Origin: Nitrosopumilus sp.
GTDB taxonomy: Archaea; Thermoproteota; Nitrososphaeria; Nitrososphaerales; Nitrosopumilaceae
Assembly (NCBI GenBank): GCA_963667665.2
Contig: OY763927.2
Location: 864,001 to 928,000, forward strand
Reading direction: 5' to 3'
Length of the DNA stretch: 64,000 nucleotides
How positions within the stretch are numbered: position 1 is the first letter of the stretch; the number at the start of each line of letters is the position of its first letter. The position numbers and the translations under genes are program-made. Below, piece by piece: positions 24,630 to 58,412 of the stretch. Below the pieces are notes generated by a model. The model worked only from the letters and a program-made list of their open reading frames with translations, ran no database searches and was not told where the DNA came from.

Positions 24630-24738
24630 AAAGACCGGTCTAAAGACCGGATCCATTCGAAAATCTCAACAAAGACCGGTTTAATGACTGGATCCATTCG
24701 AAAATCTCAACAAAGACCGGATCCAAAGACCGGGTCTA
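24630..24738. repeat. Iteron-like repeat cluster (AAAGACCGG units, 41-bp period)
   Basis: GGATCCATTCGAAAATCTCAACAAAGACCGG at 24649 and 24690; several AAAGACCGG copies, one more at ~24528. Confidence 0.8.
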
Positions 24739-24999: not shown

Positions 25000-25254
25000 T
25001 CATCTGGTGTCTTGAAAGCATCTTGTGCAGTTTTTCTGCGCCGTGACATCGGTGTTGCAATGCATGCACTGCACCAGCACGGCTCGCATCTGGTTGGGTC
25101 TGAATATCTTCACTGTGTCAGTGTCTATCCGTACTGGTTCTTCCTTATTCCAACAGGAATGACACAGCAGGTGCTCCATGTACATGTAATTGTATAGTAC
25201 GGCATAATCACTTTCATGACTACATCTCTTGAGTTTGGGGATGCAGTCAGTCAA
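25000..25254 (-). CDS. Small Cys-rich Zn-finger protein
   Basis: CSH, CHSC, CMHC, CTRC. Confidence 0.5.
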   Translation of the reverse strand: MTDCIPKLKRCSHESDYAVLYNYMYMEHLLCHSCWNKEEPVRIDTDTVKIFRPNQMRAVLVQCMHCNTDVTAQKNCTRCFQDTR

Positions 25255-25391
25255 AACTTGGGTACAATTCCATCAACTGGCTAAATGTTTCTGAGGATGT
25301 GTGTGTAATTGAGCAATTTTGAATATTGTCGCTAATTTTCACTTTGAGCTCGATCAGTTACCGTGCAGGCATTTCCGTGACAGACAGACAG

Positions 25392-28300: not shown

Positions 28301-31300
28301 TGGTCACGTGTTGCCGTTGACTGTTATTGCAGCCGAGCTGTCGCTGGCAGTGGGGGTGACTGTCACCTGGGTGACAGAGTTATCCACGCTGGCAGTATAC
28401 GTGATGTCAGAGCTGGAAAACTGCGGGCTCAGCGTGCCAGAACTGATCGTCAGGCCGGCAAGGTCGGCGTTGTCAGAGAGGGCAGCACGTGTAAGGGTAA
28501 TGATATAGGTCTTAGTCGTAGAGTCCTGGGCAGTAACTATTACCGTGACGGTGGTGGGCTCGCCCACAGTCAGGCCGGTGAGGATGTGACCGGTGCCGCT
28601 GGGCACGATGTTGTCGTTGACTGCTATTGTGGCTGAGCTGTCGCTGGCAGTGGGGGTGACTGTCACCTGGGTGACAGAGTTATCCACGCTGGCAGTGTAC
28701 GTGATGTCAGAGCTGGAAAACTGCGGGCTCAGCGTGCCAGAACTGATCGTCAGGCCGGCAAGGTCGGCGTTGTCAGAGAGGGCAGCACGTGTAAGGGTAA
28801 TGATATAGGTCTTAGTCGTAGAGTCCTGGGCAGTAACTATTACCGTGACGGTGGTGGGCTCGCCCACAGTCAGGCCGGTGACGATGTGACCGGTGCCGCT
28901 GGTCACGATGTTGTCGTTGACTGTTATTGCAGCCGAGCTGTCGCTGGCAGTGGGGGTGACTGTCACCTGGGTGACAGAGTTATCCACGCTGGCAGTGTAC
29001 GTGATGTCAGAGCTGGAAAACTGCGGGCTCAGCGTGCCAGAACTGATCGTCAGGCCGCCAAGGTCTGCGTTGTCGGAGAGGGCAGCACGTGTAAGGGTAA
29101 TGGTATAGGTCTTAGTCGTAGAGTCCTGGGCAGTAACTATTACCGTGACGGTGTTAGGCTCGCCCACAGTCAGGCCGGTGACGATGTAGTCATTGCCGCT
29201 GGTCACGTCGTTGCCGTTGACTGTTATTGCAGCCGAGCTGTCGCTGGCAGTGGGGGTGACTGTCACCTGGGTGACAGAGTTATCCACGCTGGCAGTGTAC
29301 GTGATGTCAGAGCTGGAAAACTGCGGGCTCAGCGTGCCAGAACTGATCGTCAGGCCGCCAAGGTCTGCGTTGTCGGAGAGGGCAGCACGTGTAAGGGTAA
29401 TGGTATAGGTCTTAGTCGTAGAGTCCTGGGCGGTAACTATTACTGTGACGGTGTTAGGCTCGCCCACATTCAGGCCGGTGACGATGTAGTCATTGCCGCT
29501 GGTCACGTCGTTGCCGTTGACTGTTATTGCAGCCGAGCTGTCGCTGGCAGTGGGGGTGACTGTCACCTGGGTGACAGAGTTATCCACGCTGGCAGTATAC
29601 GTGATGTCAGAGCTGGAAAACTGCGGGCTCAGCGTGCCAGAACTGATCGTCAGGCTGCCAAGGTCTGCGTTGTCGGAGAGGGCAGCACGTGTAAGGGTAA
29701 TGGTGTAGGTCTTAGTCGTAGAGTCCTGGGCGGTAACTATTACTGTGACGGTGTTAGGCTCGCCCACAGTCAGGCCGGTGACGATGTAGTCATTGCCGCT
29801 GGTCACGTCGTTGCCGTTGACTGTTATTGCAGCCGAGCTGTCGCTGGCAGTGGGGGTGACTGTCACCTGGGTGACAGAGTTATCCACGCTGGCAGTGTAC
29901 GTGATGTCAGAGCTGGAAAACTGCGGGCTCAGCGTGCCAGAACTGATCGTCAGGCTGCCAAGGTCTGCGTTGTCGGAGAGGGCAGCACGTGTAAGGGTAA
30001 TGGTGTAGGTCTTAGTCGTAGAGTCCTGGGCGGTAACTATTACCGTGACGGTGTTAGGCTCGCCCACAGTCAGGCCGGTGACGATGTAGTCATTGCCGCT
30101 GGGCACGATGTTGCCGTTGACTGTTATTGCAGCCGAGCTGTCGCTGGCAGTGGGGGTGACTGTCACCTGGGTGACAGAGTTATCCACGCTGGCAGTGTAC
30201 GTGATGTCAGAGCTGGAAAACTGCGGGCTCAGCGTGCCAGAACTGATCGTCAGGCTGCCAAGGTCTGCGTTGTCGGAGAGGGCAGCACGTGTAAGGGTAA
30301 TGGTGTAGGTCTTAGTCGTAGAGTCCTGGGCGGTAACTATTACCGTGACGGTGTTAGGCTCGCCCACATTCAGGCCGGTGACGATGTGAGTCGGTGCCGC
30401 TGGGCACGATGTTGCCGTTGACTGTTATTGCAGCCGAGCTGTCGCTGGCAGTGGGGGTGACTGTCACCTGGGTGACAGAGTTATCCACGCTGGCAGTGTA
30501 CGTGATGTCAGAGCTGGAAAACTGCGGGCTCAGCGTGCCAGAACTGATCGTCAGGCTGCCAAGGTCTGCGTTGTCGGAGAGGGCAGCACGTGTAAGGGTA
30601 ATGATGTAGGTCTTAGTCGTAGAGTCCTGGGCGGTAACTATTACTGTGACGGTGTTAGGCTCGCCCACATTCAGGCCGGTGACGATGTGACCGGTGCCGC
30701 TGGTCACGATGTTGTCGTTGACTGTTATTGCAGCCGAGCTGTCGCTGGCAGTGGGGGTGACTGTCACCTGGGTGACAGAGTTATCCACGCTGGCAGTGTA
30801 CACGATGTCAGAGCTGGAAAACTGCGGGCTCAGCGTGCCAGAACTGATCGTCAGGCCGCCAAGGTCTGCGTTGTCAGAGAGAGGTGCGGCACGTGTAAGG
30901 GTAATGGTGTAGGTCTTAGTCGTAGAGTCCTGGGCGGTAACTATTACTGTGACGGTGTTGGTGCCCACATTCAGGCCGGTGACGATGTGACCGGTGCCGC
31001 TGGGCACGATGTTGTCGTTGACTGTTATTGCAGCCGAGCTGTCGCTGGCAGTGGGGGTGACTGTCACCTGGGTGACAGAGTTATCCACGCTGGCAGTGTA
31101 CGTGATGTCAGAGCTGGAAAACTGCGGGCTCAGCGTGCCAGAACTGATCGTCAGGCCGGCAAGGTCGGCGTTGTCGGAGAGGGCAGCACGTGTAAGGGTA
31201 ATGGTGTAGGTCTTAGTCGTAGAGTCCTGGGCGGTAACTATTACTGTGACGGTGTTGGTGCCCACATTCAGGCCGGTGACGATGTGACCGGTGCCGCTGG

Positions 31301-33803
31301 GCACGATGTTGTCGTTGACTGTTATTGCAGCCGAGCTGTCGCTGGCAGTGGGGGTGACTGTCACCTGGGTGACAGAGCTGTCCACGCTGGCAGTGTACGT
31401 GATGTCAGAGCTGGAAAACTGCGGGCTCAGCGTGCCAGAACTGATCGTCAGGCCGGCAAGGTCGGCGTTGTCGGAGAGGGTGGCGGCAGACACACTGACT
31501 TCCAGCATGCGCCAATTGTTTCCGTCCTCAAAGACGTTTGAACCCGAGGCAGTCACATTAACCATATAGGAGGACTTTGTCCCAACTGAAGTCATGTTTA
31601 TCTTGTTGCCGTTCACGATCTCAAAGAAGGCATAATCGTTGTCCCTGCTGATACCGTACGTCGGGTTGTGGTCATTGAGGTAGTCGTTCTGCGCGGAGAT
31701 CTCTGCCACCACCCCCGGCACGTCCGCCCTTGCAATCGAGGTGGCGTTTGCCACGACATACCAGTTCCCGAGGTTCTGGTTGAAGGAGAAGGTACTGATA
31801 AACATGTTGCCCATTTCACTTACCGAGGAGACGTCCCAGTCGTTGAGGGGTTGGTTGAAGACGGTGGCGAAAAAGAACATGCCAGACATGTCGGTGACAG
31901 ACGAGACATCCCAGGAGGAGAGGTCGCCGTTGAAGGATGAGGTGCTGGCGAACATGTATTCCATGTGGGTCACGCTCGAGACGTCCCAGGAGGAGAGGTT
32001 GCCGTTGAAGGATGAGGTGCCGTAGAACATGTATCCCGTGTCGTCGACATCGGACAGGTCCGGCGCGTCGGTTGCGCGGTACACCATATTGGTCGCCCCG
32101 TCAAACGCCCTGTACATGGTGGTCCATCTCGTGTCGCCCCACTGGTCGATCGACTTGAGCTGGAGGACGTTTGGTTTATCGTCCGAGTCGTATATGAAGA
32201 TACTCTTAAGGCCATCATCCAGTACGGTGACGGTGTAGTTTCCGGCGGTGCTGTACGTGTGCGACTGGGAGTCGCTGACATTTGTGCTGTTGGAGCCGTC
32301 ACCCCATAGGATGGAGTACATGCCTTTCATGGGGAGGGTTATGCTCTTGTCGGAGTCGGTGGCAGTCCAAGTGGTGATAAACGGCCGGTGCTCCCCCTTG
32401 ACGGTGACGATGAGCGTCCGGGTGTGGCCTTCCTCTTCGGCGTTAGGCTCGCCCAGTACGGCAGGAGCAGTTATGTCCAGAGGATACATGCCTACAGGTG
32501 GCAGGTTTGTAGAGTTAAGCGAGAGTGTCTTGCCGTCCATGACAAACCTGGTGTCATCTATAGAATATGTGGACACAAGGCCGTCCAGGTAACTGTTCTG
32601 CGCCCTGATGGGAAACATCGCGTTGGCAGTCAGGACGGGAGGGTCCTGCACCACGTACCATTCCCCGAGGTTCTGCGAGAACGCGGTGGCGAAATTGAAC
32701 ATGTCATCCATGTTGGTCACGCGCGAGACGTTCCAGGAGTTGAGAGGCTGGTTGAAGTCGGTGGCGTCTGCGAACATGCCAGACATGTAGGTGACAGACG
32801 AGACATCCCAGTCGTTGAGGGGCTGGTTGAAGGAGGTGGCGACTGCGAACATGTCGTTCATGTTGGTGACAGAGGAGACGTCCCAGGAGTTGAGAGGCTG
32901 GTTGAAGACGGAGGCGTAATAGAACATGCCAGACATGTAGGTGACAGACGAGACATCCCAGTCGTTGAGGGGCTGGTTGAAGGAGTTGGCGACTGCGAAC
33001 ATGTCGTTCATGTTGGTGACAGAGGAGACGTCCCAGGAGGAGAGGTTGCCGTTGAAGTCGTAGGCGAAGATGAACATGTCGGACATGTCAGTCACCTTTG
33101 AGACGTCCCAGGAGGAGAGGTCGCCGTTGAAGGAGGAGGCGCTATCGAACATGTTGGACATGTCAGTCACGCCTGAGAGATCGGGCGCATCACCTGCGTT
33201 GTACACCATGTTGGAGGCGCCGCTAAAGGCGTTCTCCATCGAGGCCCATGAGGCGGTACCCCACTGATCCAGTGAGACCAGTTTGGACGCGTCGGCGGCA
33301 TTGTTCAGGTGAAACCATGTCAGGCCGCCGGTTATCTGGACGGTATAGTCGCCGGCAGTATTGTAGGTGTGGTCAACGGGTGTCGAGACGCCGGCGGTGG
33401 TGTTGCCGTCGCCCCAATTAATGGTGATGTCGGTTCCTACTAGCGGGAGGGTTATCGACTCGTCTGCAGAAGTCGTCCTCCACGTGGTCACAAACGCCCC
33501 GGCGGTCAGAGACGTGCTGTCTGGAGTCTGCGCAAACGCGTATCCTGACTGTGACGCAGACAAGTCCGGAATTGACCAAGTGTTACCGGTCAGATGGTAC
33601 GGTGCGGGGTCTGATGCAACTATTTGTCCCGGCTTGACTGTGTGTTGCACCTCTGCGCCACCCCCCACCCCAATCACCATGAGCGATACGGCAAATACGG
33701 CTACCAGCAGGAATATCTTTTCGTGGCGGCACCTGCAGGCTGTGCGGGACGAACCGCTGGACAAATATCGAAAAGGGGCACTAAAATTGTAATTAAAGGT
33801 CAC
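25392..33803 (-). CDS. Giant surface adhesin: PKD-like + DUF285 (BspA-type) repeats + 16 cadherin-like beta-sandwich repeats + thaumarchaeal C-terminal anchor-like domain (four frameshifts)
   Basis: WDVSSVTNMxxMF repeats, WGDG PKD motifs, SDNADLxxLTISSGTLSPQF repeats, IPDWMMTELG..DEF C-terminus; ORF pieces join across ~30389, 28307, 27408 and 27110. Confidence 0.85.
26690..31480. repeat. ~16 near-identical 300-bp tandem repeats (100-aa cadherin-like domains)
   Basis: Unit GAGCTGTCGCTGGCAGTGGGGGTGACTGTCACC... recurs every ~300 bp. Confidence 0.95.
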
Positions 33804-33851
33804 TGTCCTTATTTATACCATTAAGTATTTATATTTGCCTTTATAGTTCTG

Positions 33852-33984
33852 TTGTACGGAAATTAGTTCTGTCCAAGTTTAATCGTACCATAAAGGATTA
33901 TTTTACACTGTACTAGTCATCTATTGTACAGAAATTAGTTCTGTCCAAGTTTAAGCGCACCATAAATGATCGTTTACACTGTAC
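33852..33984. repeat. 72-bp-period direct repeat upstream of the adhesin
   Basis: TTGTACxGAAATTAGTTCTGTCCAAGTTTAA...TTTACACTGTAC at 33852 and 33924. Confidence 0.8.
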
Positions 33985-34418
33985 CGATCAGGCCGCATGA
34001 TGCAAATCTGGAAATATTTGGCAGTTCTTTTAAAATATGCAGCATCAGATGTCAAATAAAAAGTGTCAGGAATCTGCCAAAAAATCACAGTGAACGGACC
34101 CAAACACCGCCTAGATGACAGGATTTGCACAGATCTTGGATGGTTTGCAGGTTTTGTGTGGATGTGGCAAAGGCAGAAATGGGAGTGGCATCAAATGGCT
34201 GGCAGACTGCTTCGGGCAAAGAGCATACACGTGGAACCTGAAAATGCTGCACAATCAGGTCAAACCCCGTCCGGCCCACTACAATAAGGAAGCTTTTATA
34301 GAATTTTTTTTATGTGTGTCACAACATGCAGGTTGGACGCTGAACGGAATTCCATATTCAGGTATGCGTGAAAATGAGCTAGTTCTTTGCTGCAGGTTAT
34401 TCCCGGCCCTTTATTGCC

Positions 34419-34837
34419 ATGGCAGTATTAGATTATGACTCATGTTACAAAATACTGCGTCCTGTGGAACAGGCAGATTTCAACGCACCTCCCAAAATCG
34501 TTCATATATTGAAGATGATCCCGTCTGACGGGCGCGTGGCATTTGAACATTTTAAGGATACCGGCAAACATACTGCCATCAGGGAGTCAAACATGCATGT
34601 TCCAACGGAATACTCAAAAGAATATCACCGTACGAGTGCGTATTGAGGCTTGGTTCAGTTAAATTCTGGCGCACACGGCTCAGCGAGTCCGGCCACAAGA
34701 ACTACGCGTCAGAACCTGGCACCGGGCAAGCATGTTTGAGATGCCTATCCAGGTTCGACGAGTGGCTGCCCGGTAGCTCATTCCATACTATTCGGATTAA
34801 AGATCCGGACAAAATCACTTTCGCCGTTTTCAATTGA
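34419..34837 (+). pseudogene. N-terminal remnant of a tyrosine recombinase of the 56727-58412 family
   Basis: SVKFWRTRL...KN...T.QACLRCLSRFDEWL aligns with SIQYWQSQL...KN...TKKAYLRQLWNFNKWL. Confidence 0.6.
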
Positions 34838-35697
34838 GTGTTCAATTAGGTGGATGGGTGTTAAGTAGGGTGATAAATGATTATGGGAGTGGTTCGTGTC
34901 CTCTTTTGTATCCTGAGAATTTTCTATATTCGTAATCAGTTAAAGGAGTTTGACATCCACATTTACAAAATGTTTTCATGTTTTCAATTTACACTGCACA
35001 TACAAAAAGATTAGGAATTCATCTTTAGCCAGCAACTGTCTTTTCCATTTGACAACCATGCAAATTTATGAAGTTTCAAAATATCATTAATCTCCCTCCA
35101 GATGTGTTTATCAATCCAATCCTTGGGAGTTATTTTGATAGAGTCACCCTTATTAACTATTGATACTTTTTTGATTCTCTTTCCAAGATTGTTTACAAAA
35201 TTTGGTTTGCTTCCAGCTTGTTTTATCAAATCTAGATATTTGTCATCACCAAGATTCAAGTTAATGTTTGCAGCTTGTGCAGGAGTCTTACCATTTAGCC
35301 CTTGATGTGGTTTTACAAAGTTATGGTTAATTTTCAACAATTCTGAAAATGTTTGTGCTGATTCATCATTTCCCAATCCACGTCTAGCTTTGAGTTTTTC
35401 TCTTATCTCATTATGGTATCTCTCAATAGGCCTATTCACAAAGCCATCTTTGAGTGATTTTGTTTTGATATGTGCAGTTTTATTTTCAAACTCTTTTCTA
35501 ATTGCTTCTTGGTAAGAGTTGAGACAATCAGTTAATACATAATTTGGATTCTGTGATACTATCTTTTTGCCACTTGTGATAATCTTTCTTGCATCTGAAA
35601 TTTTCCTTTTCTGTTGATTTGGGATATTTTTTTTGACAAAACTTGAAGACAGAGTCAAATCTAACATTATTTCTGAAATTAGAATCACTACATTTTA
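34827..35697. repeat. 871-bp direct repeat, copy 1 (copy 2 at 41485-42355)
   Basis: Offset 6658 bp; I noticed three substitutions, all synonymous in the transposase frame. Confidence 0.95.
35011..35688 (-). pseudogene. IS6-family transposase C-terminal fragment
   Basis: LTDCLNSY, NRPIERYHN, KPHQGLNGKTPA; first catalytic Asp missing. Confidence 0.8.
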
Positions 35698-35821
35698 GGT
35701 TCTGTAACGTTACCGGTTGGATCTTCTTCGTGTAACACATCGGTTGGTTTTAGTGTAAAATCCCTGGAATATTTTGAGAAACATATTGACACCTTAACAA
35801 ATCCATATTTTTTCAACCATT

Positions 35822-44044: not shown

Positions 44045-47000
44045 CTAAACAACAAATATCTTAACTCCTATTTTTTCTTCTTCTGTAAGTGATTCATAAA
44101 CGTCTTGGATTTTTGGACTAATTGACCATACATGACACTCTTTGAATCCTAACTGTTTCCATTTTACCATATTTAGTTTGACATGACTTTTATGAGAATC
44201 GGACTCTGCGTTTGACTCTATTTCAACAGATATTGGAATTTCTTTTTCATAATCATAAGCTACAAAATCTGTTCGTAATTTGCCTTTCTTTACTTTTTGT
44301 GTAGCTACTGTGACAAAGTTTCCTTTTGAAACATAATGATCTGTTACCTTTTGAACCATCATTGGAATGTCTTTGGCACTTCCTACAGTCTCAGAAGAAT
44401 AATCAAATAATTGAGATTTTGTCTTATCTGTCAATGAATATACTCCCTTATGGCCTTCAGTTTTAGAAAGCATTTTTTTGTTTACCATGTTCTGCAGAAT
44501 GTCCTTAGACATGGTATCTCGATGAATTGTACCGCCTTTGAAGCTATCAACAATCTTTTGAAGTCCAAGTGGTGAATCTTTGAGAATACAACAAACCAAC
44601 CATTCATCTTCTGTTGGAGGCTCAAATGAGATATTCTTGAGCCATACATTGCTTTGAGAGGAATATTGCTTCATCAAAGAGTCGCCAACTACACCATGAC
44701 CGTATTTCTCCTTTTGAGATTCTATGAATTCATCTAGGAATTCCTTTGGCTGAGTATCTTTTTTAGGAAAAACTGGCCAAAACTGGATAGGTATTGGTTG
44801 GGTTTCCCCTGGAGCTGCAATTAATCTTACAGTCCAGGGATAGTATTCTTGTGTAGCTAGCTGCGATTCAATCTCTTTGGTATATGTTGGATCCCAAATT
44901 TGGCCAAATCTTTTACCATCTCTGCCAGAAACCTTTCCTACAAATTGAGTTCCTACATTTCCTGTAATAATTTCAAACAATTTATCATTAAGCTGAGTCG
45001 ATGTTTGATGTGCCAGTAACAATGATAGTTTGTATGATCTAGCTTGTGTCAACATTGATTCTATTATTGGCAGATTTGCAATATCTTGAAATTCATCTAA
45101 TGCCAAAACAACCTGTGTTCTGTCTTCTTCAATTTTGATTCTATCTGCTCTTTCTTGTATTACAAACCACAGCTTGATCACCAATGTTTGTTTAGCTAAA
45201 GTTATGATATGCTGAGGAATGTTTAGTGGTGATAATCTAATTATTGTGACATGTCCTGGTGAAATCAATTCATCAAAATTAATGGTTGATTCTCTGACAC
45301 AGAAAAGATGTCTCAGAATTGGGTCTGTTGCAAATTTCTCAACTCTATTCAATACTGGCTCATAAGCTTCTTTGGACATTCCTGCAATGGATTCAACTGC
45401 TTGTTGTAAAACAGCATCAGGCTTTCCTAATTCCTTGAACATTTTTGATAACATTTCTGTTCCATCTTCCTGGATAGAGATTATAATCTCATACAAATCA
45501 AGAAATGTTGGTTTGTCATTATTCAGATATAGATATTGTAGTAGTGTGTCTAGAATTCTTTTTAGTCTGACAAAAGAATCAGAGCCATTATACCAATATT
45601 CTATCATTGTCATAATATAACCAACATATTGTGAAACTACAGCTTCTCTGTTTTCTGGAAGATATGATGGAAGCTCCAAAATATTCATAGAGAATTTTGT
45701 TTGGATTGGATCCAAAAAGTGAACATTACCTTTTGCTAATGTTTCATTTTCGCATTGTCTTAGAAAATCATATGAATCAGATCCCTTTGGGTCAATTAGG
45801 ATGAAGGCATTTGGGAAATTTCCAGAAATATTTGAGAGCTCCAAATGTTTTGCAATTGCTCTGATTAGAGTGGTTTTTCCTGATTTGGTACCACCAACTG
45901 CATACATGTGAGTTGGAATATCCTCAGTGGATAGAACTATGCTCTTAGTTTCTGCTGAATGAATGAAATTACCATAGAAATTAGGTTCATCATAATTTAA
46001 CGTGGAATTTCTTGAATAATATCCAAGACAATAACCAATTTTGTTCATCTGTTGTTGTGGCATTGATTGTTTTCGGGTGATGGTTAGATGCTTTGTGGTG
46101 CTGTTAGGTAAATGAATGAACAATCCCAATTCACTTGGAATTAATAACAAAAATGGTGGCGATTTTCTTGTCTTATATTTTCCACTCCAAGATTTTGAAC
46201 AATAATCATTTACTATTTTTGGGAATTGATGTATAGGATCAGGAAGTAGTCTGTCTGGAAATATGTCTATCTTTTGTTTTTTTGTTTTCTCTGAATTTAT
46301 CTTGATGTATTGTGGATTTTTTTCTGAATAAAAATTATCATATTTGTAGATATTTTTGGTAACATGCTCAAAATTTGAGCGGATATTTTCAACTGGTAAG
46401 GATTCTATTTCTGAGAAATCTAAATCCAAATCAACATTTGATTCTACCAATCCTCTAACAGACAACAACACATGTGAGTCCTGAGTCTTCATAGTGCTGT
46501 GTTTTTCTAATACTTTGAAATTTGTTGCAAAGTCGTGAAACTTTTCTGGATGTTCTCGTCCTTCAGTTTTACTTGTGAATAGCATATCTGATGTACTGTA
46601 ATAGTCATTAGCTGTTACTGTCTTGTAATGGTTTTTGATATTAGTTGAATGAGATTGTAGTTCTTTCACAAAAGAATGGTTTTTGAATACTAGCTGAATC
46701 CATGCGTATTTTGAAAGCTGGATGGTATTTGCAATTTGTGTGATTAACAGATGTGCTTTTGCCTGATCAAAGACTGTTGTATAATGACCGTGCTTGTATC
46801 CTACATCAAATATTTGGTAATCCTTGTTTTTATCAAACCAGTCAGGAACCAAATAATCAATATCTTCAAAATCAATATTTTGATACATGTTGTAAAATGA
46901 CTGTTTTAGCTTGTCAAGATCGTGGGTTGATGCCACCAAAACTATGTGAAGTTGTTGTTTTTCTGAATCCCACCATAACTCCATTGAGCGAATTCCTGCA

Positions 47001-47161
47001 GAAATTATTCCCCCTACGTTGTTTATTGCGTTTTTTACGTCCATAGTTGTTGGAATTGAAATAAAACACGCCTTGAGTTCAGTATTTGTTCCTACAAATC
47101 TTTCTGTTTGGTCTAATAATCCTGGAATATTTTTAGAGTTTGAAAGCTTCCAATTAGCCAT
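44045..47161 (-). CDS. VirB4/VirD4(TraD)-HerA-type ATPase with C-terminal wHTH and PD-(D/E)XK-like domain
   Basis: HMYAVGGTKSGKT, LIDPKG, LDEFQ, QARSY..LLLAHQ; C-terminal RTDFVAY..VEIE. Confidence 0.85.
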   Translation of the reverse strand: MANWKLSNSKNIPGLLDQTERFVGTNTELKACFISIPTTMDVKNAINNVGGIISAGIRSMELWWDSEKQQLHIVLVASTHDLDKLKQSFYNMYQNIDFEDIDYLVPDWFDKNKDYQIFDVGYKHGHYTTVFDQAKAHLLITQIANTIQLSKYAWIQLVFKNHSFVKELQSHSTNIKNHYKTVTANDYYSTSDMLFTSKTEGREHPEKFHDFATNFKVLEKHSTMKTQDSHVLLSVRGLVESNVDLDLDFSEIESLPVENIRSNFEHVTKNIYKYDNFYSEKNPQYIKINSEKTKKQKIDIFPDRLLPDPIHQFPKIVNDYCSKSWSGKYKTRKSPPFLLLIPSELGLFIHLPNSTTKHLTITRKQSMPQQQMNKIGYCLGYYSRNSTLNYDEPNFYGNFIHSAETKSIVLSTEDIPTHMYAVGGTKSGKTTLIRAIAKHLELSNISGNFPNAFILIDPKGSDSYDFLRQCENETLAKGNVHFLDPIQTKFSMNILELPSYLPENREAVVSQYVGYIMTMIEYWYNGSDSFVRLKRILDTLLQYLYLNNDKPTFLDLYEIIISIQEDGTEMLSKMFKELGKPDAVLQQAVESIAGMSKEAYEPVLNRVEKFATDPILRHLFCVRESTINFDELISPGHVTIIRLSPLNIPQHIITLAKQTLVIKLWFVIQERADRIKIEEDRTQVVLALDEFQDIANLPIIESMLTQARSYKLSLLLAHQTSTQLNDKLFEIITGNVGTQFVGKVSGRDGKRFGQIWDPTYTKEIESQLATQEYYPWTVRLIAAPGETQPIPIQFWPVFPKKDTQPKEFLDEFIESQKEKYGHGVVGDSLMKQYSSQSNVWLKNISFEPPTEDEWLVCCILKDSPLGLQKIVDSFKGGTIHRDTMSKDILQNMVNKKMLSKTEGHKGVYSLTDKTKSQLFDYSSETVGSAKDIPMMVQKVTDHYVSKGNFVTVATQKVKKGKLRTDFVAYDYEKEIPISVEIESNAESDSHKSHVKLNMVKWKQLGFKECHVWSISPKIQDVYESLTEEEKIGVKIFVV

Positions 47162-47307: not shown

Positions 47308-47522
47308 GGTTCTGTAACATCACCGGTTGGATCTTCTTCGTGTAACACATCGGTTGGTTTTTGTGCAAATCTACCAAAGTTTGGTCATTAAATCTCCCAT
47401 CGGGTTTTGTCAGATCAGCAATACTCCCCACTTTTGTTTATAACTCTAATCTTAATTTTCAAAAAATCATAAATTTTTTGTTGACTGTTAATATTATATT
47501 CTATCAAATCGTATAGTATTAC

Positions 47523-51374: not shown

Positions 51375-51610
51375 TTCATCTCCTCCAATGTTTTATCAGA
51401 GAATTTCATTTGATTTTTTGAGAGAGTTTCTTTCCTGTCATCTTTGACTTCCTCTTCATTAATTTCCTTGAATTCTAGTAACAATTTCATTCGAAATTGC
51501 TTCTCTAGCATTTGCATGCATGGAACTGTAAATTCTTGCATTTGCATGCATAGAGGACAAAAATAATAATCCTCAGTATCTATAGTCATTTCTTGTTTTA
51601 CCTTATTCAT
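51371..51610 (-). CDS. Hypothetical protein with CxxC
   Basis: CPLC; coupled to the Cas4-like gene. Confidence 0.5.
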   Translation of the reverse strand: MNKVKQEMTIDTEDYYFCPLCMQMQEFTVPCMQMLEKQFRMKLLLEFKEINEEEVKDDRKETLSKNQMKFSDKTLEEMK

Positions 51611-52367
51611 TTTCTTTTTCCTCCTTTGATTTTGGGATAGACAATGGTTTATCAGTTAATCCATTTCCATCCTCAAAGCATCTTGTCTGGTATTTACAAA
51701 ACTTGCAGAGTCCAGATGTTTCTCCATTTGGAATTTTGTCATGTGTCTTACCATCTTCAATTTCCTGAATTCTAGTCTTTATCCAGTCTGTTAGATCTCT
51801 TTTTTCTACTTTGTATGTTACAATATCAGACATGTCTGCATAGACAATGTTTAGATTCTCTACTGGTACGTATTCTGAAAACATTGTATCATAGCATTGT
51901 AGTTGCAAGATATGTTCGAGTTTTGGCAAGAATCCTTGCTTTATTTGCCATCTAACAAACTTTGTAGTTTTTAGATCAATGATTGTCTTTGTTTTCCAAT
52001 CATACATGTCTAGTCTTCCTGCTAGTGTTGCTACTTTTCCATTCTTTAATGGAACATGATACTCAATATCCATCTCACGCCATTTGTAAGCATATGTCAT
52101 GTTGTGAAGAAAATCACCACGAACAGTAGCCCACATTGATTCAAGTGTTGTATCTGCTAGAAGTTCTTCTTGAGATATTCCTAGTTGTTTGTATAGAGAT
52201 TTTCTTTGACATCCAACTAGTTCAGTCACAGAATATCTAGACTTCCAGTTTTTGGTAAATACACCGTTTCGTTTTTGTAAAAAATTAATGATTCCTTCTG
52301 GTGCATCTATTTCTTTTGCTAAAGCGATTTGGCCGCTACCCATTTGTTTTGAAATCTTTTGTTTCAT
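51603..52367 (-). CDS. Solo Cas4-like PD-(D/E)XK exonuclease
   Basis: C..RK, RG..LH, GRLD, IDLK, QLQCY, CKFCKY..RC (four Fe-S Cys). Confidence 0.85.
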   Translation of the reverse strand: MKQKISKQMGSGQIALAKEIDAPEGIINFLQKRNGVFTKNWKSRYSVTELVGCQRKSLYKQLGISQEELLADTTLESMWATVRGDFLHNMTYAYKWREMDIEYHVPLKNGKVATLAGRLDMYDWKTKTIIDLKTTKFVRWQIKQGFLPKLEHILQLQCYDTMFSEYVPVENLNIVYADMSDIVTYKVEKRDLTDWIKTRIQEIEDGKTHDKIPNGETSGLCKFCKYQTRCFEDGNGLTDKPLSIPKSKEEKENE

Positions 52368-52400
52368 ACATTATATAATGAATGATGTTTAGTAGGTTTA

Positions 52401-52432
52401 AATTTGGATTATACAAATAATATTTGTACTAA
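52401..52432. promoter_or_regulatory. 32-bp operator/BRE box, copy 1
   Basis: AATTTGGATTATACAAATAATATTTGTACTAA; 29/32 match to copy 2; 33 nt from the Cas4-like ATG. Confidence 0.8.
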
Positions 52433-52447
52433 ATAGTATTTTTACAC

Positions 52448-53194
52448 CTAGATCGTTCCAATTCTAACTTGAGTATCAATCCACACTTGTAAAATCTCAA
52501 TAAACTCATAAACTGAAAAAATTACTAAATTCGCCAAAGTGATATAATTTCCTGGATGATCAATTCCCGATATTGGTTCTGAGATCTTTCTTTTTGCAAG
52601 ATCAAACTTAGCACTGAAAAAAGGTTCTTCTTTATGTGTTTGAAAATTTCTCATGTTATTTAGAACGTCTATAACTCCTCCATAATATTCATATAATTCA
52701 TTTTTTGCTTTTCTCCAATCCATACTTTGTTTATTGTCTTTTCTGCTTCTTGTTGTATATGGATTATTTTGTACATTTTGATAACGAATTTTAATATTTT
52801 CCCGATTAAATTTTTCTAAGAGATTATGCAAAGAATCATCTGGTTCCAATGCATGTTCACAAGAATTTTTCAAATAACCTTTGAATAATTTTAAAAACAT
52901 ATCTTTTAGTGCATGAGGAATATTTCTCAATAATTCATTTTCAATCCGCTGTAATTCATCGAAATCTTTAGGTATTGGAAAGTCTGTAGGAAAAATACTT
53001 GGAATAATACCTTGAGATAAATCATCATATGCCTTTTTAATATTTTCACTCACGTCTGGTGTAATTTCTTCAGTTGTTTTCATTAACTCAATAATTTTAT
53101 CATTTAATGATTCCCAGATCAAAGTTTGTGTGTCTTTTACTCTAACTCTTAAAATCAGATAACGATCAAAATTTGAAATTTCTTTGTTTGTCAA
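52448..53194 (-). CDS. HEPN-like protein
   Basis: Helical; NMRNFQTH (RxxxxH); start abuts the stop of the RM gene. Confidence 0.65.
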   Translation of the reverse strand: MTNKEISNFDRYLILRVRVKDTQTLIWESLNDKIIELMKTTEEITPDVSENIKKAYDDLSQGIIPSIFPTDFPIPKDFDELQRIENELLRNIPHALKDMFLKLFKGYLKNSCEHALEPDDSLHNLLEKFNRENIKIRYQNVQNNPYTTRSRKDNKQSMDWRKAKNELYEYYGGVIDVLNNMRNFQTHKEEPFFSAKFDLAKRKISEPISGIDHPGNYITLANLVIFSVYEFIEILQVWIDTQVRIGTI

Positions 53195-55384
53195 TTATTC
53201 CTCATAATCAAATTTGAAAAGATTTTGTTTTTCAGCTTTTAGTTGTTTTTCAAGTTTTTCTATGTTGTTTAATTTATTATCTAATGCTACTAACTTTTTC
53301 TTTTGTTGATTAAGTGGAGTTTTAGGAATGATCAAAGAATTGAGATTGTCCATATTTATTCTAGAAATAAAATTTGCTTTGCTTTTTATTTTTAATTGTT
53401 CCTGCACACTTTCTGAATTGAGCACATATGCTAGAAATTTAGGAATGATTTTTTTTGGATCTGCTCTAATTACAGCTATTTGTGGACTGGGTAAAATTCC
53501 TACGTCTTTTTTACGTGTAATTCCTATTTTTCCAACTGTTCCCTGGCATGATAATAAAATATCATTTTCTTTGATTAAAAAATCAGAGTACTGTTTAGGA
53601 TATTGTATATAGATAGTTTTTGAAACCACATCCTTTATGAAACCATTTTCTATGTCTTGTATTCTAAGATATGGAGTGGGTGTCTTCTTACTATCTAGTT
53701 CAGAATCAACTGGAGATGGTTTCCCAAACCAAATTTTTCCTAATTTTTCTAATTCAATACCGTTTAGATTTTCGATAATCTTTTGTAATTCTGGTGTTTT
53801 GTCTGATACTGTCCATGTTTTAATCAAATCATTTTGATGTACATGAAAACTTTCAGAAGATGCTTTGAATGATTTTCCTTGTTCAAATTTTTGGAAATCA
53901 TTTTTAATTTTTCTTAAAACATTTGTCCTTAATTTTTTATCTTGAAATACATCTGTAGAAATATCCGACAAGAATACTCTGTTCCAATTTTCCTTACCTT
54001 CTTTTCTTTTGAAATTTAGAATTATCAAACTCATAGATATTCCTGTTTGAGGTAAAGCAATTCCTTGAGGAAATTGAATTATGGCTCTTAGATATCCTGG
54101 ATGTGCTAAAGAAAGACGAAGTGATTCTAAATTTTTCATTGCAAGAAAACTTGGAGGTACTAATAATGCAACTTTGGATAGGTTTTTTTGATTTTGTAAT
54201 TTTTTGATAATATATGCTAATTGTGTTCTTCCATAATTCCCATAAATTTTTCTTATTTCATCTCTTGATGAAATATCTGCACCAATTGGAGGAAAACAAA
54301 AAATGTACTCAAAATCGTTCATTTCCTTAGAATTTAAAAACAAATAATCTTTATTGACTAATTTTATTTCTTTTTCGTATAATTTAGAAATGACTTCTAA
54401 AATTTCACATACATCAGTATTTACTTCAACGCCTGCCAGATTTTTGGTTACATAATCATTTAATTGACTTTTAGTAAGTTTGTATTTTTTTTCAAATATC
54501 TCTGGTAAATCAAAAAGTGGACCATATCTTGCATATGGAATAAGTATTTTTTTATTTTTTAATGGATCAATTAAATCAAATATGAGATTGGATAGTTCTT
54601 TTGGATAATCAATCCAATCGTCTCTTAACAATAATTTTAACATTATTTTCCTAATTGCTTCTTTGTCTGATTTTAATAACGAATATTCTTTCACTGTATC
54701 AAACAATTCATAAAATTTTATTCTAGATAGTTTTTCTTCTGTAACTCTATGTGTACCAAACAAATTTGGAAATGTTCTCTTTCCTAATTCAAACAATTCA
54801 TTTATTTTTTCTTCTTTTGATTTGTTTGTGTCTTCTTCGAATAATTTTCCTTTGAATTCTGTTTCATCTAAAATTTTTAATGTAACAATTTGTAAAAATG
54901 GAGTATATTGATAAAAATCTCTTCTAACTATATCTGCAAGTATTTTTATTTGATAATTAGTTGCAGCAAGGGGTTTGAATTCATTTAATATTTTTTGAAT
55001 TTTATCAAAAAATTCCTTTTTTGGAATATCTTTGATTGGTAAAAGACTATTTCCCTTTAACTGAAATGTCTTTTTTTCTTTTCCATTATATAATATTCCA
55101 TATTCTGCTTTTGATTCTTTTAGATATTCTGAAAGTTGATGTTCAAAAAGTGGTAAAACCAAATTTCCTGTTTTTACTTCTACAATAATTCTTGGTTTTT
55201 TCTTTTCATCAAATACAACGACATTTGCTCTTTTTCCAGAATCTTCTCCAAGAAAGACTTCTCTTCCAATCTGTTTTGGAGGGAATCCATAGTCCTTCTT
55301 CAAAATCTTGATAATTTTTTCAACAAGTTCCACCTCCTTGATCATATCATATTCTTCATTATCGTTGTTTTTATTCATGTTCAT
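53195..55384 (-). CDS. HsdR_N nuclease-like + N6-MTase-like + TRD fusion (type I/IIG-like) with degenerate catalytic motifs
   Basis: RANVVV..VEVK; motif I IPYARYG; motif IV FPPIG; TRD ENDILLSCQGTVGK..IPKFLAYVLNS..PLNQQ. Confidence 0.8.
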   Translation of the reverse strand: MNMNKNNDNEEYDMIKEVELVEKIIKILKKDYGFPPKQIGREVFLGEDSGKRANVVVFDEKKKPRIIVEVKTGNLVLPLFEHQLSEYLKESKAEYGILYNGKEKKTFQLKGNSLLPIKDIPKKEFFDKIQKILNEFKPLAATNYQIKILADIVRRDFYQYTPFLQIVTLKILDETEFKGKLFEEDTNKSKEEKINELFELGKRTFPNLFGTHRVTEEKLSRIKFYELFDTVKEYSLLKSDKEAIRKIMLKLLLRDDWIDYPKELSNLIFDLIDPLKNKKILIPYARYGPLFDLPEIFEKKYKLTKSQLNDYVTKNLAGVEVNTDVCEILEVISKLYEKEIKLVNKDYLFLNSKEMNDFEYIFCFPPIGADISSRDEIRKIYGNYGRTQLAYIIKKLQNQKNLSKVALLVPPSFLAMKNLESLRLSLAHPGYLRAIIQFPQGIALPQTGISMSLIILNFKRKEGKENWNRVFLSDISTDVFQDKKLRTNVLRKIKNDFQKFEQGKSFKASSESFHVHQNDLIKTWTVSDKTPELQKIIENLNGIELEKLGKIWFGKPSPVDSELDSKKTPTPYLRIQDIENGFIKDVVSKTIYIQYPKQYSDFLIKENDILLSCQGTVGKIGITRKKDVGILPSPQIAVIRADPKKIIPKFLAYVLNSESVQEQLKIKSKANFISRINMDNLNSLIIPKTPLNQQKKKLVALDNKLNNIEKLEKQLKAEKQNLFKFDYEE

Positions 55385-55417
55385 AATATGAAAAGAATCT
55401 AAAAAGCAATAATCTTA

Positions 55418-55449
55418 AATTTGGATAATACAAATATTTTTTGTACTAA
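55418..55449. promoter_or_regulatory. 32-bp operator/BRE box, copy 2
   Basis: AATTTGGATAATACAAATATTTTTTGTACTAA; overlaps the regulator ATG; 33 nt from the RM-gene ATG. Confidence 0.85.
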
Positions 55450-56348
55450 TGGCAATATTCATAGCACCGATAGGAACTCACACTGAACATGTAAAGGGAT
55501 GGCTCAAAGAAGAATCTAGAGATGTAGATACTCTATGGCTGATTCATAGTAAAAAAAACATAAAGTTTGATTTTCCAAAGATTGCAAAAAAATTAGAAAA
55601 AGATCTAAATGCAGCATATCCACAAATCACAATAAAGAAAAAAATAATTGAAAGTGCATTTTCTGAAGACCCCACAATTGATGCTATACTTGAAATTATT
55701 CGCAAAGAGGAAGATGATGATTCCTCTATTATTCGAAAAGACTTTGTTGTAAATATCACAGGTGGTACTAACATTATTGCAGCAGCCACAATTCTTGCAG
55801 CAACATTTTATGGAACAAGAGCTCATTATGTTAAAGAACCACAAAAAGGTGATCCAAGGGGAACAAAATATGTTTACGAATTACCAATTCAACCAATAGG
55901 AATTGCTAGATTAAATCAAAATCAGTTAGATGTTTTAAAAATTATTGCAGACTCTACTTATGAAATAAATGATGTACCTAAAGGACTAGATAATAAAAAA
56001 ACACCTGGTTCTATTACACGATTTAAGTTACTCCAAAAACTTGGATGGGCAAAACCAGTAAAAGGATCAAAATTTCCAAGAAGAGAAGGAGGAACCAGAT
56101 TACTTGGAATCACAAAGAAATTAAGAGATGCTGGTTTAGTTGAACAAATAGATTTTATTGAATTTTATAAGGATCAAAATGAATCTAAAAAATCAAAAAT
56201 AGTATATCAGGATGGTTATGCAAAAAAAGTTGAAAATAAAAAATATGTTTCTGACTGGAAAATTTTAAGAAATGAAAGAGAAGTAAGATATGAGATAACT
56301 GCTGCAGGCAAACGTAAAGCAAGAGATGCCCTTATGTTTGATATTTAG
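55449..56348 (+). CDS. CARF-like (DUF6293/Csa3-type) + wHTH regulator
   Basis: IFIAPIG, LWLIHS, VNITGGT, AHYV; wHTH KLRDAGLVE..YEITAAG. Confidence 0.8.
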   Translation: MAIFIAPIGTHTEHVKGWLKEESRDVDTLWLIHSKKNIKFDFPKIAKKLEKDLNAAYPQITIKKKIIESAFSEDPTIDAILEIIRKEEDDDSSIIRKDFVVNITGGTNIIAAATILAATFYGTRAHYVKEPQKGDPRGTKYVYELPIQPIGIARLNQNQLDVLKIIADSTYEINDVPKGLDNKKTPGSITRFKLLQKLGWAKPVKGSKFPRREGGTRLLGITKKLRDAGLVEQIDFIEFYKDQNESKKSKIVYQDGYAKKVENKKYVSDWKILRNEREVRYEITAAGKRKARDALMFDI

Positions 56349-56376
56349 TACAAAAAATATTTGTATTATCCAAATT
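56345..56376. promoter_or_regulatory. 32-bp operator/BRE box, copy 3 (perfect inverse of copy 2)
   Basis: TTAGTACAAAAAATATTTGTATTATCCAAATT overlapping the regulator stop; 33 nt before ATG 56410. Confidence 0.85.
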
Positions 56377-56726
56377 CAAAGATAACTTGTAGTTTCTCTA
56401 ACTATTTTCATGACACAAAAATGCCCTCAAAAGAAACGATGCGTGCAAGAGATATTTTGAGATGGTTTGTGGTGTTTGTTATTGGCTACTAAAAGAATGC
56501 AAATCCCAAAAAATTGCAATTCCTGGGGGCTACAAATTATCTAAATTAATTCAAAATGAAGGATTTGTGATAAAATACCCAAAACCAACCGATCTGTTAC
56601 ACGGAAAAGATCCCACCGGTGATGTTACACTATGACAATTTTTCATTTAACCGTTTTGAACTGGATCCACTTTTGGGAATAGATCGCAGAGAATCAGGTG
56701 TGAAATTGAGGCTAGTTTATGGTCTT

Positions 56727-58412
56727 TTATTCATAAATTCTTCTGATTTTGGAACCACAATTAGGGCATTGCTCTTTTGTATGAATAATTGAGCAGTCAG
56801 CACAGCAAAACTCGATTGGGGTAGATGCTGAGACGTTTTGTGGTTTCTGTTTTATCTCTGTGAGTTCCTTTTTAATGTCTGCAAATTCTTCTTGTTGCTG
56901 TTTTAGGATTATTTCATGTCTTGCAAGGGCTGATTTTTGTGATTTTTCTTCGGATTCTTTTTGTTTTAGTGTTGCAAGTGCATCATTTAGTTCTGCCTTC
57001 AGAACATCAGAATCATCAGTGCCATTAACTATTGATGTGAATTTTGTAAATATGTTAAGTCTTTTTGATGCCTTGGAGTATTCTTTTCGCAGATTTTCAG
57101 GAAATAATTTTGCTTGTTTTTTGTAAGAGTTTTTTGGTTTATGTCCTACTGATTCTTCAATTACATCTTCTCTACACCCACAATCAGTTAACACAGATAC
57201 CAATACGTCACGAATTTCATGTGAATCCATGTTGTAGATATTTTTGCCATTAGCTGTTTTGCCTATTATTTTTAATATTCCTGCTCTTTGTGCAATTTTA
57301 TGGAAGGAGTGGCTCACCCATGAATCTGTAACGGGGTTTCCAAATTTATTTAGAAATATTGGATCTCCCATTTGGATATTCTGTTTTGTTTGTTTTTTTC
57401 TAAAATCCAAATATCTTTGTAACTCATAAACTGCATCTCTGTCTAGAAATCCAATATGCTTGTAATCTACTTTAATTCTTACAAGAGTAATTGGTACAGG
57501 GCACTTGTCTAAATCCCATGAATTGTGATTCTCCGAGCCAAAATATTTCACTAATTGTTCCCATGCCTCAAAATTGAATCTGTCCACCAAGGTTGTTCTA
57601 TCCAATCCTCTTTGAAATTTACACAAAAATAATGCTTTTTCCATCATTGATGGCTTTCCAACAGTTAAAAATTTCATCAAATCAGATAATGACATGCTTT
57701 GTTCTTCGATCTCGTTATTATGAGTAATTGTAGGATCATACTGAAAATTAATCTCCTGTTCATTTCTTTCAAAATATGATATTATTGCAGATTTGATTAG
57801 TGTTAACGAATTTGCTTTAAAATTGATATGTTTCTCATCAAGAAGATATTGCTTTATGATTCGTATGATTGTTTTTTGTTCTATAAATGGTCCTTCTAAT
57901 ATGTCAAGAATTTCTTCTACGTTTTGAAATTTTTTATATTCTGTTTTTTGTACAAATGTGTTTTTATTGGTTCTATGGAGTAATGATATTTTGAATCTTC
58001 TTTCATTGTTTTCAATGTCGGGGGATGTAAGCCATTTGTTAAAATTCCACAATTGACGCAAATATGCTTTTTTGGTACTATCTTCTGCAGTTTTTGCGTT
58101 CTTTTGCCTGTTTCCTCTTAATTGTGATTGCCAATATTGTATTGATTTTAGATCTGTAAACCAGGCAGGGATGTAATTCTCATCAACTCTTTCAATCATT
58201 TTATGATCTTTTGCAAATTTTATCATCTTTTGACTTTTAATGAGGGCATTTTTCTTTTCGTTCTTGCATATTTTTAGAAGAAATTTTTTATTATTTTCAA
58301 ATAATGAGTTTACTGAAACGGTCTCACCTGTTTGTGGAAAGTGAATTTCTTCAAATAATTGCGGAAATTCTAGATTATTTTTGACAACTTTGTACAGGTA
58401 TGACTGTTTCAC
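56727..58412 (-). CDS. Tyrosine recombinase with C-terminal coiled coil and Zn ribbon
   Basis: FQRGLD, RIK, SHEIRD, VGHK..SY; CADC..CPNC. Confidence 0.85.
   Translation of the reverse strand: MKQSYLYKVVKNNLEFPQLFEEIHFPQTGETVSVNSLFENNKKFLLKICKNEKKNALIKSQKMIKFAKDHKMIERVDENYIPAWFTDLKSIQYWQSQLRGNRQKNAKTAEDSTKKAYLRQLWNFNKWLTSPDIENNERRFKISLLHRTNKNTFVQKTEYKKFQNVEEILDILEGPFIEQKTIIRIIKQYLLDEKHINFKANSLTLIKSAIISYFERNEQEINFQYDPTITHNNEIEEQSMSLSDLMKFLTVGKPSMMEKALFLCKFQRGLDRTTLVDRFNFEAWEQLVKYFGSENHNSWDLDKCPVPITLVRIKVDYKHIGFLDRDAVYELQRYLDFRKKQTKQNIQMGDPIFLNKFGNPVTDSWVSHSFHKIAQRAGILKIIGKTANGKNIYNMDSHEIRDVLVSVLTDCGCREDVIEESVGHKPKNSYKKQAKLFPENLRKEYSKASKRLNIFTKFTSIVNGTDDSDVLKAELNDALATLKQKESEEKSQKSALARHEIILKQQQEEFADIKKELTEIKQKPQNVSASTPIEFCCADCSIIHTKEQCPNCGSKIRRIYE

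Follow-up and report, generated by a model that had tools for sequence, protein, structure and literature searches.

The repeated box and the genes around it

We analyzed a defence-gene locus in a 64,000-nucleotide stretch of the Nitrosopumilus sp. forward strand (assembly GCA_963667665.2, contig OY763927.2, positions 864,001 to 928,000), referred to below as the window. The stretch belongs to a 1,891,871-bp (1.89-Mb) genome that is 99.97% complete and contains about 31% GC. At the locus, a plus-strand gene (55449..56348) encodes a 299-amino-acid protein, here called the regulator, with an N-terminal CARF domain (residues ~1-150) and a C-terminal winged helix whose wing is enlarged. On its left, minus-strand genes encode a fused restriction-modification (RM) protein, a HEPN-like protein and a Cas4-like nuclease; on its right lies a tyrosine-recombinase-like gene. 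Three copies of a 32-bp box are placed among these genes.

The 32-mer AATTTGGATAATACAAATATTTTTTGTACTAA, which is copy 2 of the box, matches the window at 52401-52432 (plus strand, three mismatches), 55418-55449 (plus strand, no mismatch) and 56345-56376 (minus strand, no mismatch), and 0 of 100 dinucleotide shuffles contained any match to it. The bare dyad TACAAA-N5-TTTGTA has three sites in the whole genome, all of them at this locus, compared with one site for the reversed control pattern; when one mismatch is allowed, the window contains two further, unrelated sites (15307 and 44261). Each box is separated from a start codon by exactly 33 nucleotides: 52368-52400 leads to the ATG at 52367 (minus strand), 55385-55417 to the ATG at 55384 (minus strand), and 56377-56409 to the ATG at 56410 (plus strand). 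A preliminary description of this DNA had reported the three copies, their common distance to an ATG and the overlap of copy 2 with the start of the CARF-like gene, and all three observations hold when read off the sequence.

Copy 1 (52401..52432, directed to the minus strand) carries its dyad at 52412-52428 and a TATA-like TTTAAATTT at 52397-52405. In copy 2 (55418..55449, likewise directed to the minus strand) the dyad occupies 55429-55445, a third half-site lies at about 55420-55429, and a TATA-like palindrome, TTAAATTT, at 55415-55422 is shared by both directions. The last base of this copy is the A of the regulator's ATG (55449). Copy 3 (56345..56376, directed to the plus strand, dyad at 56349-56365) is a perfect inverted copy of copy 2 and begins inside the regulator's TAG stop (56346-56348). 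Thus, the regulator gene is bracketed by two perfect inverted copies of the box.

The regulator

The assignment of the 55449 protein to the CARF proteins carrying a wHTH domain (winged helix-turn-helix), made in the preliminary description, is confirmed by profiles as well as by fold. Twenty-seven CARF-type PADLOC models match the regulator, the best being CARF3--CARF (E 4.7e-22) and the other 26 being CARF, Csx1, Csm6 and Csa3 models. An AlphaFold2 model built from 22 homologues has a predicted local distance difference test score (pLDDT) of 86.7, and its top Foldseek match in the PDB is Csa3 with cyclic tetra-adenylate, cA4 (6wxq_A, E 1.8e-7, 248 columns). A second structure, 2wte_A, is aligned over 304 columns (TMt 0.59); the alignments to these two structures cover both domains, and all Foldseek matches listed for the regulator are CARF proteins. 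Searching the PDB by sequence brought no relevant match to the regulator (best E 0.13), viral contigs contained no relative of it, and its Pfam matches include neither a WYL family nor an HTH_3-type domain.

A symmetric homodimer model of the regulator scored 0.67 against 0.00 for the best control, with a contact agreement of at least 71% and a partner pLDDT of at least 84; among proteins of solved structure, this mark was reached by 20 of 30 that are pairs of one chain and by 1 of 23 that are single chains, and the pass may reflect only likeness to solved CARF dimers. The predicted interface comprises residues 103-112 (an invariant loop), 115-120 and 143-151, and includes the β4-α4 loops.

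Residues invariant in the regulator family (G9, T104, G105, G106, T107 and Y127) are situated on the β1-α1, β4-α4 and β5 loops; structure prediction of the CARF pocket, proposed in the preliminary description, thus places them on the pocket loops. The same loops hold cA4 in Csa3a, and motif 2 of Csa3 is Leu-x2-Gly-h-Arg, where the arginine binds the cA4 phosphates, as described in the consulted part of PMC8699464. In contrast, the regulator family has at this position an invariant T104-G105-G106-T107-(N/K), with the arginine absent. The pocket loops are the most conserved part of the family, yet unlike those of Csa3.

Two observations suggest that the CARF domain of the regulator might bind no ligand at all and serve dimerization only, the protein being a constitutive, dose-dependent controller like the C proteins of RM systems. 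The Csa3 arginine is missing, and the genome contains no match to Cas10 (Csm1, Cmr2), Cas1 or GGDEF, and only a sub-threshold match to SMODS. We regard such a ligand-free CARF as doubtful, because the invariant residues are found on the pocket loops and not elsewhere, which is the pattern of a conserved ligand site. From the conserved loops, the absent arginine and the failure to find a known cyclic-oligoadenylate synthase in the genome, a ligand appears likely to exist, but it is probably not cA4 made by a type III system of the host.

Conservation of the dyad and its spacing

Homologues of the regulator were found in 11 of 401 genomes of the class, the present one included, and in 82 protein clusters at E <=1e-5, 61 of which have a precomputed PF19810.6 match. 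The loci in named genomes include, among others, those of a marine group I thaumarchaeote (L026), Nitrosopelagicus (L028), Nitrosotalea devanaterra (L032), a Nitrososphaerales metagenome-assembled genome (MAG; L040) and SCGC AAA799-D11 (L044); six further loci are on metagenome contigs. The genes around the homologues are type I RM operons (hsdM, hsdS, hsdR), Cas4-like nuclease genes, and homologues of the HEPN-like and fused RM genes of the window.

Dyads were counted in 20 homologous loci of Nitrosopumilaceae and allied genomes and metagenomes, giving 40 sites; many of these loci are kin, so that the numbers do not stand for independent events. The regulator's ATG is preceded, in 15 of the 20 loci, by a dyad that ends 3-4 nucleotides before it. 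An ATG opening at least 40 codons stands 44-45 nucleotides from the dyad in 25 site-directions, in 16 of which the frame opens at least 100 codons. The corresponding frequencies among 80,000 random position-directions in the same loci are 0.8% and 0.6%. Most homologous loci have a second dyad directly past the regulator stop, and there it lies 44-45 nucleotides ahead of hsdM or a Cas4-like gene. The preliminary description had suggested a motif search around the homologues, and this search shows the dyads to be conserved.

The presence of the motif was compared with that of the regulator in 226 genomes of the family, three of which are unpublished (G428, G231 and G427; zeros only). A 25-nucleotide pattern consisting of the dyad and the third half-site has 11 sites in four of these genomes, each at most 6 kb from a regulator gene, and the reversed control has no site in any of the 226. 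The regulator is encoded in eight genomes, including all four that have the motif, and the motif is found in none of the 218 regulator-less ones. Two of the four regulator genomes lacking the 25-nucleotide pattern, G193 and G253, were both verified to carry a CTACAA variant. As a presence/absence test the plain 17-nucleotide dyad was too noisy (104 of 226 genomes), and the 25-nucleotide pattern was used instead.

Since the dyads take conserved positions around the homologues and the motif is found only in genomes carrying the regulator, the reading of the box as the regulator's operator is supported by comparative evidence. The preliminary description had inferred a regulator of a non-CRISPR defence cassette; of this proposal, the operator and the non-CRISPR targets are retained, on the strength of conserved position, co-occurrence and the failure to find cas1 or cas10 in the genome.

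The repeat consensus also takes in promoter elements, namely the TATA-like run and AT-rich DNA ahead of the ATG, and the box could accordingly be a duplicated strong-promoter module that is read by another host factor, the CARF-wHTH protein merely travelling along. This is improbable: the motif is missing in all 218 family genomes without the regulator, within a genome the half-sites have changed jointly at every site, and in 15 of 20 loci the start of the regulator itself is overlapped by the dyad.

Still less credible, indeed very improbable, is a role of the boxes in recombination, as att sites, dif-like sites or terminal inverted repeats for the neighbouring tyrosine recombinase, with copies 2 and 3 bounding an invertible or mobile regulator cassette. 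These copies are indeed perfect 32-bp inverted repeats that exactly bracket the regulator, a recombinase gene is only 350 bp away, and the locus is at the edge of an island of about 47.5 kb. However, these dyads are also present on both sides of the regulator in loci having no recombinase among the scanned open reading frames (ORFs), where the copies are not identical, and fixed distances of 44-45 nucleotides to start codons and 3-4 nucleotides to the regulator ATG would be meaningless for recombination. DNA contigs of three runs (X2, X4 and X6) show the arrangement of the window and no inverted form, although rare variants could go unseen in contigs; at the repeated boxes these contigs are interrupted, as is usual in assemblies. 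A weak joint of 52391 to 56258, seen in a single contig (depth 5.8, side of 21), was not interpreted. No RNA run was listed as covering 51500-57000. A further run, X1, labelled 'metatranscriptomic WGA', yielded only fragments of relatives at 90-99% likeness and is probably DNA.

Several observations weigh against the operator reading or limit its reach. The regulator scores below the curated cut-offs of two family models, with 27.5 bits against 30 for PF19810 (HFX_2341_N) and 17 bits against 60.2 for TIGR01884 (Csa3, cas_HTH). Kinship among the loci means that the dyad counts overstate independence, and 9 of the 25 ORFs at 44-45 nucleotides are only 40-59 codons long. Five of the 20 loci have no exact dyad before the regulator: there is one mismatch in L020 and L054, the dyad is imperfect in L040 and L022, and L023 has none. 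Distant homologues in Bathyarchaeia, Promethearchaeum and Thermoplasmata lack such a dyad, and the plain 17-nucleotide dyad occurs singly in the 104 genomes mentioned above. Finally, the spacing is not universal. It is 63 nucleotides for the G193 homologue of the fused RM gene, 111 for the HEPN-like genes of G024 and G074, 106 and 109 for the divergent genes of L056 and L057, 68 in G115, whose Cas4-like gene lacks its first ATG, and 24-40 in a few loci, with 25-40 in L027 and L028.

Some individual loci have peculiarities of their own. In L018 (G024), a dyad at oriented positions 2782-2798 (raw locus 14204) is flanked on each side by a third half-site, with an ATG exactly 44 nucleotides off in both directions, and each ATG opens only 50-51 codons, beginning like the Cas4-like gene; the site resembles an operator that works both ways and whose genes are broken or split. 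In L018, L020 and L056-L058 the Cas4-like gene comes as two parts, one of ~50-145 amino acids (beginning MKQ...) and one of 173-175 amino acids (beginning MWATVRGDF); the gene could be split or frameshifted there, or genuinely exist as two genes. The metagenome contig L054, a 78%-identical relative, has a pre-regulator box close to that of the window (TCCAAA in the left arm) 33 nucleotides from a Cas4-like ATG; its hsdM operon behind the regulator has no dyad of its own and is possibly co-transcribed. L027, filed as a 'Gammaproteobacteria' MAG, encodes a regulator homologue of 41% identity with a CTACAA-type dyad 3 nucleotides before the ATG, and the contig is probably mis-binned thaumarchaeal DNA.

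Composition of the operator and promoter geometry

The target sites have the consensus TTA-TACAAA-taata-TTTGTA-taATaCAAAt-tAAA and then, close to the start, atat.a..t-ATG. The third stretch covaries with the arms of the dyad. It is of the TACGA type in L019 (two sites) and L031 and of the CTACAA type in L015 and L017, where the arms read CTACAA...TTGTAG; in the other loci it is TACAAA or TCCAAA. The preliminary description had taken the CCAAATT next to the dyad for an element like the B recognition element (BRE). Its position is indeed that of a BRE, but a general BRE identity is not upheld, as the stretch changes together with the dyad arms. Because the three elements covary within a genome, the CCAAA stretch is better read as a third half-site located where the BRE would lie, and such joint change is expected where a single co-evolving protein recognizes the sites. 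An alignment of regulators of the TACGA and TACAAA types was also inspected for a specificity residue in the recognition helix, which was too variable for one to be read.

In this genome, TATA-like hexamers peak at starts between -32 and -28 from the ATG (661 well-defined ORFs), so that many genes appear to be leaderless or nearly so. A second, smaller TATA-like peak at -66 to -63 is unexplained. Beside the box, the TATA-like run begins at roughly -36 to -33. Thus, the 33-nucleotide rule, equivalent to 44-45 nucleotides from the dyad, follows from a fixed operator-to-TATA distance, the fixed archaeal TATA-to-start distance and near-leaderless messages. The stretch between the TATA-like element and the ATG is conserved in length and not in sequence, and the genes behind it differ (hsdM, the Cas4-like gene, the fused RM gene). 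Several of the target TATA-like elements are weak (for example TTTAGGG, AAAAAAAGT and ATTCAAAG). Seen from the regulator gene, the dyad of copy 2 is located past the TATA element and ahead of the start, whereas seen from the RM gene it is upstream of the TATA element.

Predicted regulation of the cassette

Taken together, we consider it likely that the regulator is a homodimeric CARF-wHTH transcription factor and that the repeated box is its operator on its own gene and on the defence cassette. The operator would consist of three half-sites, namely the inverted pair TACAAA-N5-TTTGTA and a third TACAAA or TCCAAA 3-4 bases on, which abuts the TATA-like element. At the regulator's own gene, the third half-site and the dyad come after TTAAATTT and reach up to 4 nucleotides before the ATG, and a dimer bound between TATA and start would block the polymerase; from this position, we infer that the regulator represses its own gene.

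For the RM gene, the same TATA-like palindrome would be used in the opposite direction, with the operator upstream and the third half-site where transcription factor B (TFB) would contact the BRE. The arrangement of copy 1 ahead of the Cas4-like gene is that of the RM-side promoter. As the operator lies just upstream of TATA at all these targets, one and the same protein would set the expression of the whole cassette, that is, of the Cas4-like gene, of the operon of RM and HEPN-like genes and, in relatives, of type I RM operons.

The least certain step is the direction of control at the target promoters. We predict, with a slight preference over activation, that they are repressed and that occupation of the CARF pocket lifts this repression. 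The third half-site, probably contacted by the protein since it covaries with the dyad, overlaps the position where TFB would bind the BRE. CapW and BrxR, which likewise combine a sensor with a wHTH domain, are repressors. So is the characterized HFX_2341, according to PMC11434293.

It is nevertheless quite possible that the same regulator acting on the same operator activates the defence promoters, a dimer upstream of BRE/TATA recruiting TFB and the TATA-binding protein (TBP) while blocking its own gene at the shared promoter. Nuclease expression would then be delayed after the island enters a new cell, much as with the controller proteins of RM systems. The strict phasing of the dyad upstream of the TATA-like element and the weakness of this element at several targets speak for activation and against repression, and at copy 2 a single TATA-like palindrome serves both directions. 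Moreover, Csa3a, the best fold match, is an activator that raises cas4a/cas1/cas2 transcription from an 18-bp palindrome located 12 bp upstream of the cas4a BRE/TATA (PMC8699464). The covarying half-site at the BRE position and the repressor function of HFX_2341, CapW and BrxR remain the counterweight that makes us prefer repression.

A bolder variant, which we put forward as rather unlikely, is a CRISPR-independent CARF circuit acting as an archaeal RM controller. Its TGGT[N/K] pocket would sense a nucleotide that arises during infection or is made by the nucleases of the cassette, for instance 2',3'-cyclic-phosphate RNA ends produced by the HEPN-like protein, and would switch the type I RM, Cas4-like and HEPN-like genes of a mobile island. 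The three-half-site operator would toggle between activation at low occupancy and occlusion of TATA and BRE at high occupancy.

Genes of the defence cassette

The gene at 51603..52367 (minus strand) encodes a stand-alone Cas4-like PD-(D/E)XK nuclease of 254 amino acids with cysteines C53, C221, C224 and C230. It matches PF12705 (40 bits) and PF01930 (27.7 bits, above the cut-off of 22.7); the TIGR00372 score of 49.5 bits is below the cut-off of 65, and there is no CRISPR context. The Cas4-like gene is a conserved partner of the regulator.

Divergently from the regulator, the gene at 53195..55384 (minus strand) encodes a fused restriction-type protein of 729 amino acids, in which an HSDR_N_2 PD-(D/E)XK domain, an HsdM-like middle part and a target-recognition domain of a type I S subunit are combined (PF13588, 1.5e-12; PF01420, 3e-12; PADLOC Specificity_I, 1.5e-19; PDB S subunits 5ybb and 3okg). 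Its homologue in G193 contains HsdM_N in addition. The HsdM-like middle part has no NPPY/F motif, with FPPIG in its place, and its motif I is degenerate. The protein may thus cut without methylating, in which case tight control would be important.

The third gene (52448..53194, minus strand) has a TTG start abutting the stop of the 729-amino-acid gene and encodes a protein of 248 amino acids with the motif R182-x4-H187, both residues of which are invariant in five of five homologues. Its model is all-helical, with a pLDDT of 61.5 overall and below 50 over residues 110-214. A language-model (Atlas) lead points to PF18735, HEPN_RiboL-PSP (17 of 30 matches, top score 0.92); Pfam gave no match for any of the five family members, and Foldseek found nothing at E <=0.001 with the model. 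Hence, of the 'RM-HEPN' assignment that the preliminary description attached to the ATG at 55384, the RM gene is secured by profiles and the HEPN part is represented by the R-x4-H motif, as Pfam and fold confirmation failed. A HEPN-like nature of the 248-amino-acid protein is plausible.

The region behind copy 3 and the genomic island

Behind copy 3, the ATG at 56410 opens an ORF of 16 codons (56410-56460), which is followed in another frame by an ORF of 57 amino acids (56462-56635). Neither resembles the genes behind this operator in relatives. Nucleotide and protein searches of the homologous loci gave no similarity to the 57-amino-acid ORF, and the region 56377-56800 showed none to the neighbour proteins of other loci except for the window's own integrase. 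The preliminary description had spoken of a decayed ORF at 56410. The ATG at 33 nucleotides from copy 3 is there, and the decay is not corroborated, the ORF having only 16 codons and no similarity found. That the region represents a decayed or displaced gene is a fair reading, though unproven. In relatives, the site corresponding to copy 3 would be the operator and promoter driving hsdM or a Cas4-like gene; here this gene is missing and was probably lost at a mobile-element junction.

A 49-bp repeat (56581-56629, inverted) makes up the 3' part of the 57-amino-acid ORF and has two further copies in the window, at 35703-35751 and 47313-47361, with 88-92% identity. The copy at 47.3 kb, by eye, lies behind an apparent 3' half of a tRNA gene, where ARAGORN found no whole tRNA; Rfam and tRNA scans of the window also gave no matches. 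The three copies are possibly old attachment-site junctions.

The locus forms the right end of an island of about 47.5 kb (window 10,890-58,457). Five genomes of the same genus have the same flanks without this stretch, so that 10516-10889 is joined directly to 58458 onward, and no exact direct repeats of at least 10 bp were found at the island junctions. At the right edge is the tyrosine-recombinase-like gene (56727..58412, minus strand; 561 amino acids from a GTG), whose product scores 26.7 bits with PF00589, slightly below the cut-off of 27.1, and has weak XerA/C/D matches. Immediately beyond the left edge there is another integrase-like gene (9169-10317). The cargo includes IS240-type transposases (11212-12342 and 35011-35688), a TraG/VirD4-like protein (44045-47161) and a GC-rich block at 24,000-35,000, where the GC content is 43-57%; within this block, 25392-33803 (minus strand) encodes large DUF285 and cadherin-like repeat proteins, and the second transposase gene is at its right edge. 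In these respects the island fits the integrated elements reported for Thaumarchaeota, judging from the part of PMC6563490 consulted.

Comparison with known regulators

The nearest characterized relative is Csa3a (the Sso1445/SiRe_0764 type, with the CAPPa palindrome). It shares with the regulator the dimer of CARF and winged-helix domains and is its best fold match, and its palindromic operator, too, keeps a short constant distance upstream of BRE/TATA at the promoter of a cas4-family gene, as given in the consulted part of PMC8699464. The order of CARF and MarR-like wHTH domains is that of Csa3. However, the regulator falls below the cut-off of the Csa3 model TIGR01884, has TGGT(N/K) in the pocket instead of the G-h-R of motif 2, a much enlarged wing, and an operator of another sequence with a three-half-site layout. 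Whereas Csa3 is encoded with type I-A CRISPR-Cas genes, the neighbours of the regulator are RM, Cas4-like and HEPN-like genes.

HFX_2341 of Haloferax mediterranei (PF19810, DUF6293) shares the Pfam family, at a borderline score, and is likewise a CARF-wHTH protein, a repressor not linked to CRISPR; it is described as a vertically inherited global regulator, for which the consulted part of PMC11434293 reports no operator. In contrast, the regulator studied here is patchy (8 of 226 genomes), island-borne, and has a local, sequence-defined regulon.

C proteins of RM systems regulate their own genes from palindromic boxes before them, control nuclease expression, and have adjacent stronger and weaker sites. 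They are small Xre-type HTH proteins that are bacterial, mostly belong to type II systems and have no sensor, whereas the regulator is a 299-amino-acid CARF-wHTH protein associated with archaeal TATA/TFB promoters and type I RM operons. CapW and BrxR, as far as the available descriptions of them go, resemble it in having a sensor domain, a wHTH repressor and a location beside the controlled defence system, but their sensor is a WYL domain, while the regulator has a CARF fold and an archaeal host. An RtcR-like CARF-AAA+-HTH regulator beside RM genes was predicted by Makarova et al. 2014 (in the part of PMC4012209 consulted); RtcR-like proteins are bacterial sigma-54 activators with an NtrC-type ATPase, and the regulator has no ATPase domain. 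The literature searched contains no description of the present regulon, although an earlier mention of the gene neighbourhood in the 2020 CARF classification (Makarova et al., NAR) is possible.

The regulation of archaeal defence systems is poorly known, and CARF domains are commonly interpreted as the receiving end of type III CRISPR signalling. The present CARF-wHTH protein, with a conserved predicted operator on RM, Cas4-like and HEPN-like genes, is found in abundant marine ammonia oxidizers, with no CRISPR-Cas genes found. The site of 17 to 25 bp, three natural promoters and natural operator variants make this a testable case, and its recognition would help the annotation of such islands. 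The case bears on CARF sensing outside CRISPR, on the control of archaeal RM systems, and on the use of one TATA element by two divergent leaderless genes. In these archaea, it looks as if a CRISPR-style regulator has been wired to non-CRISPR defence.

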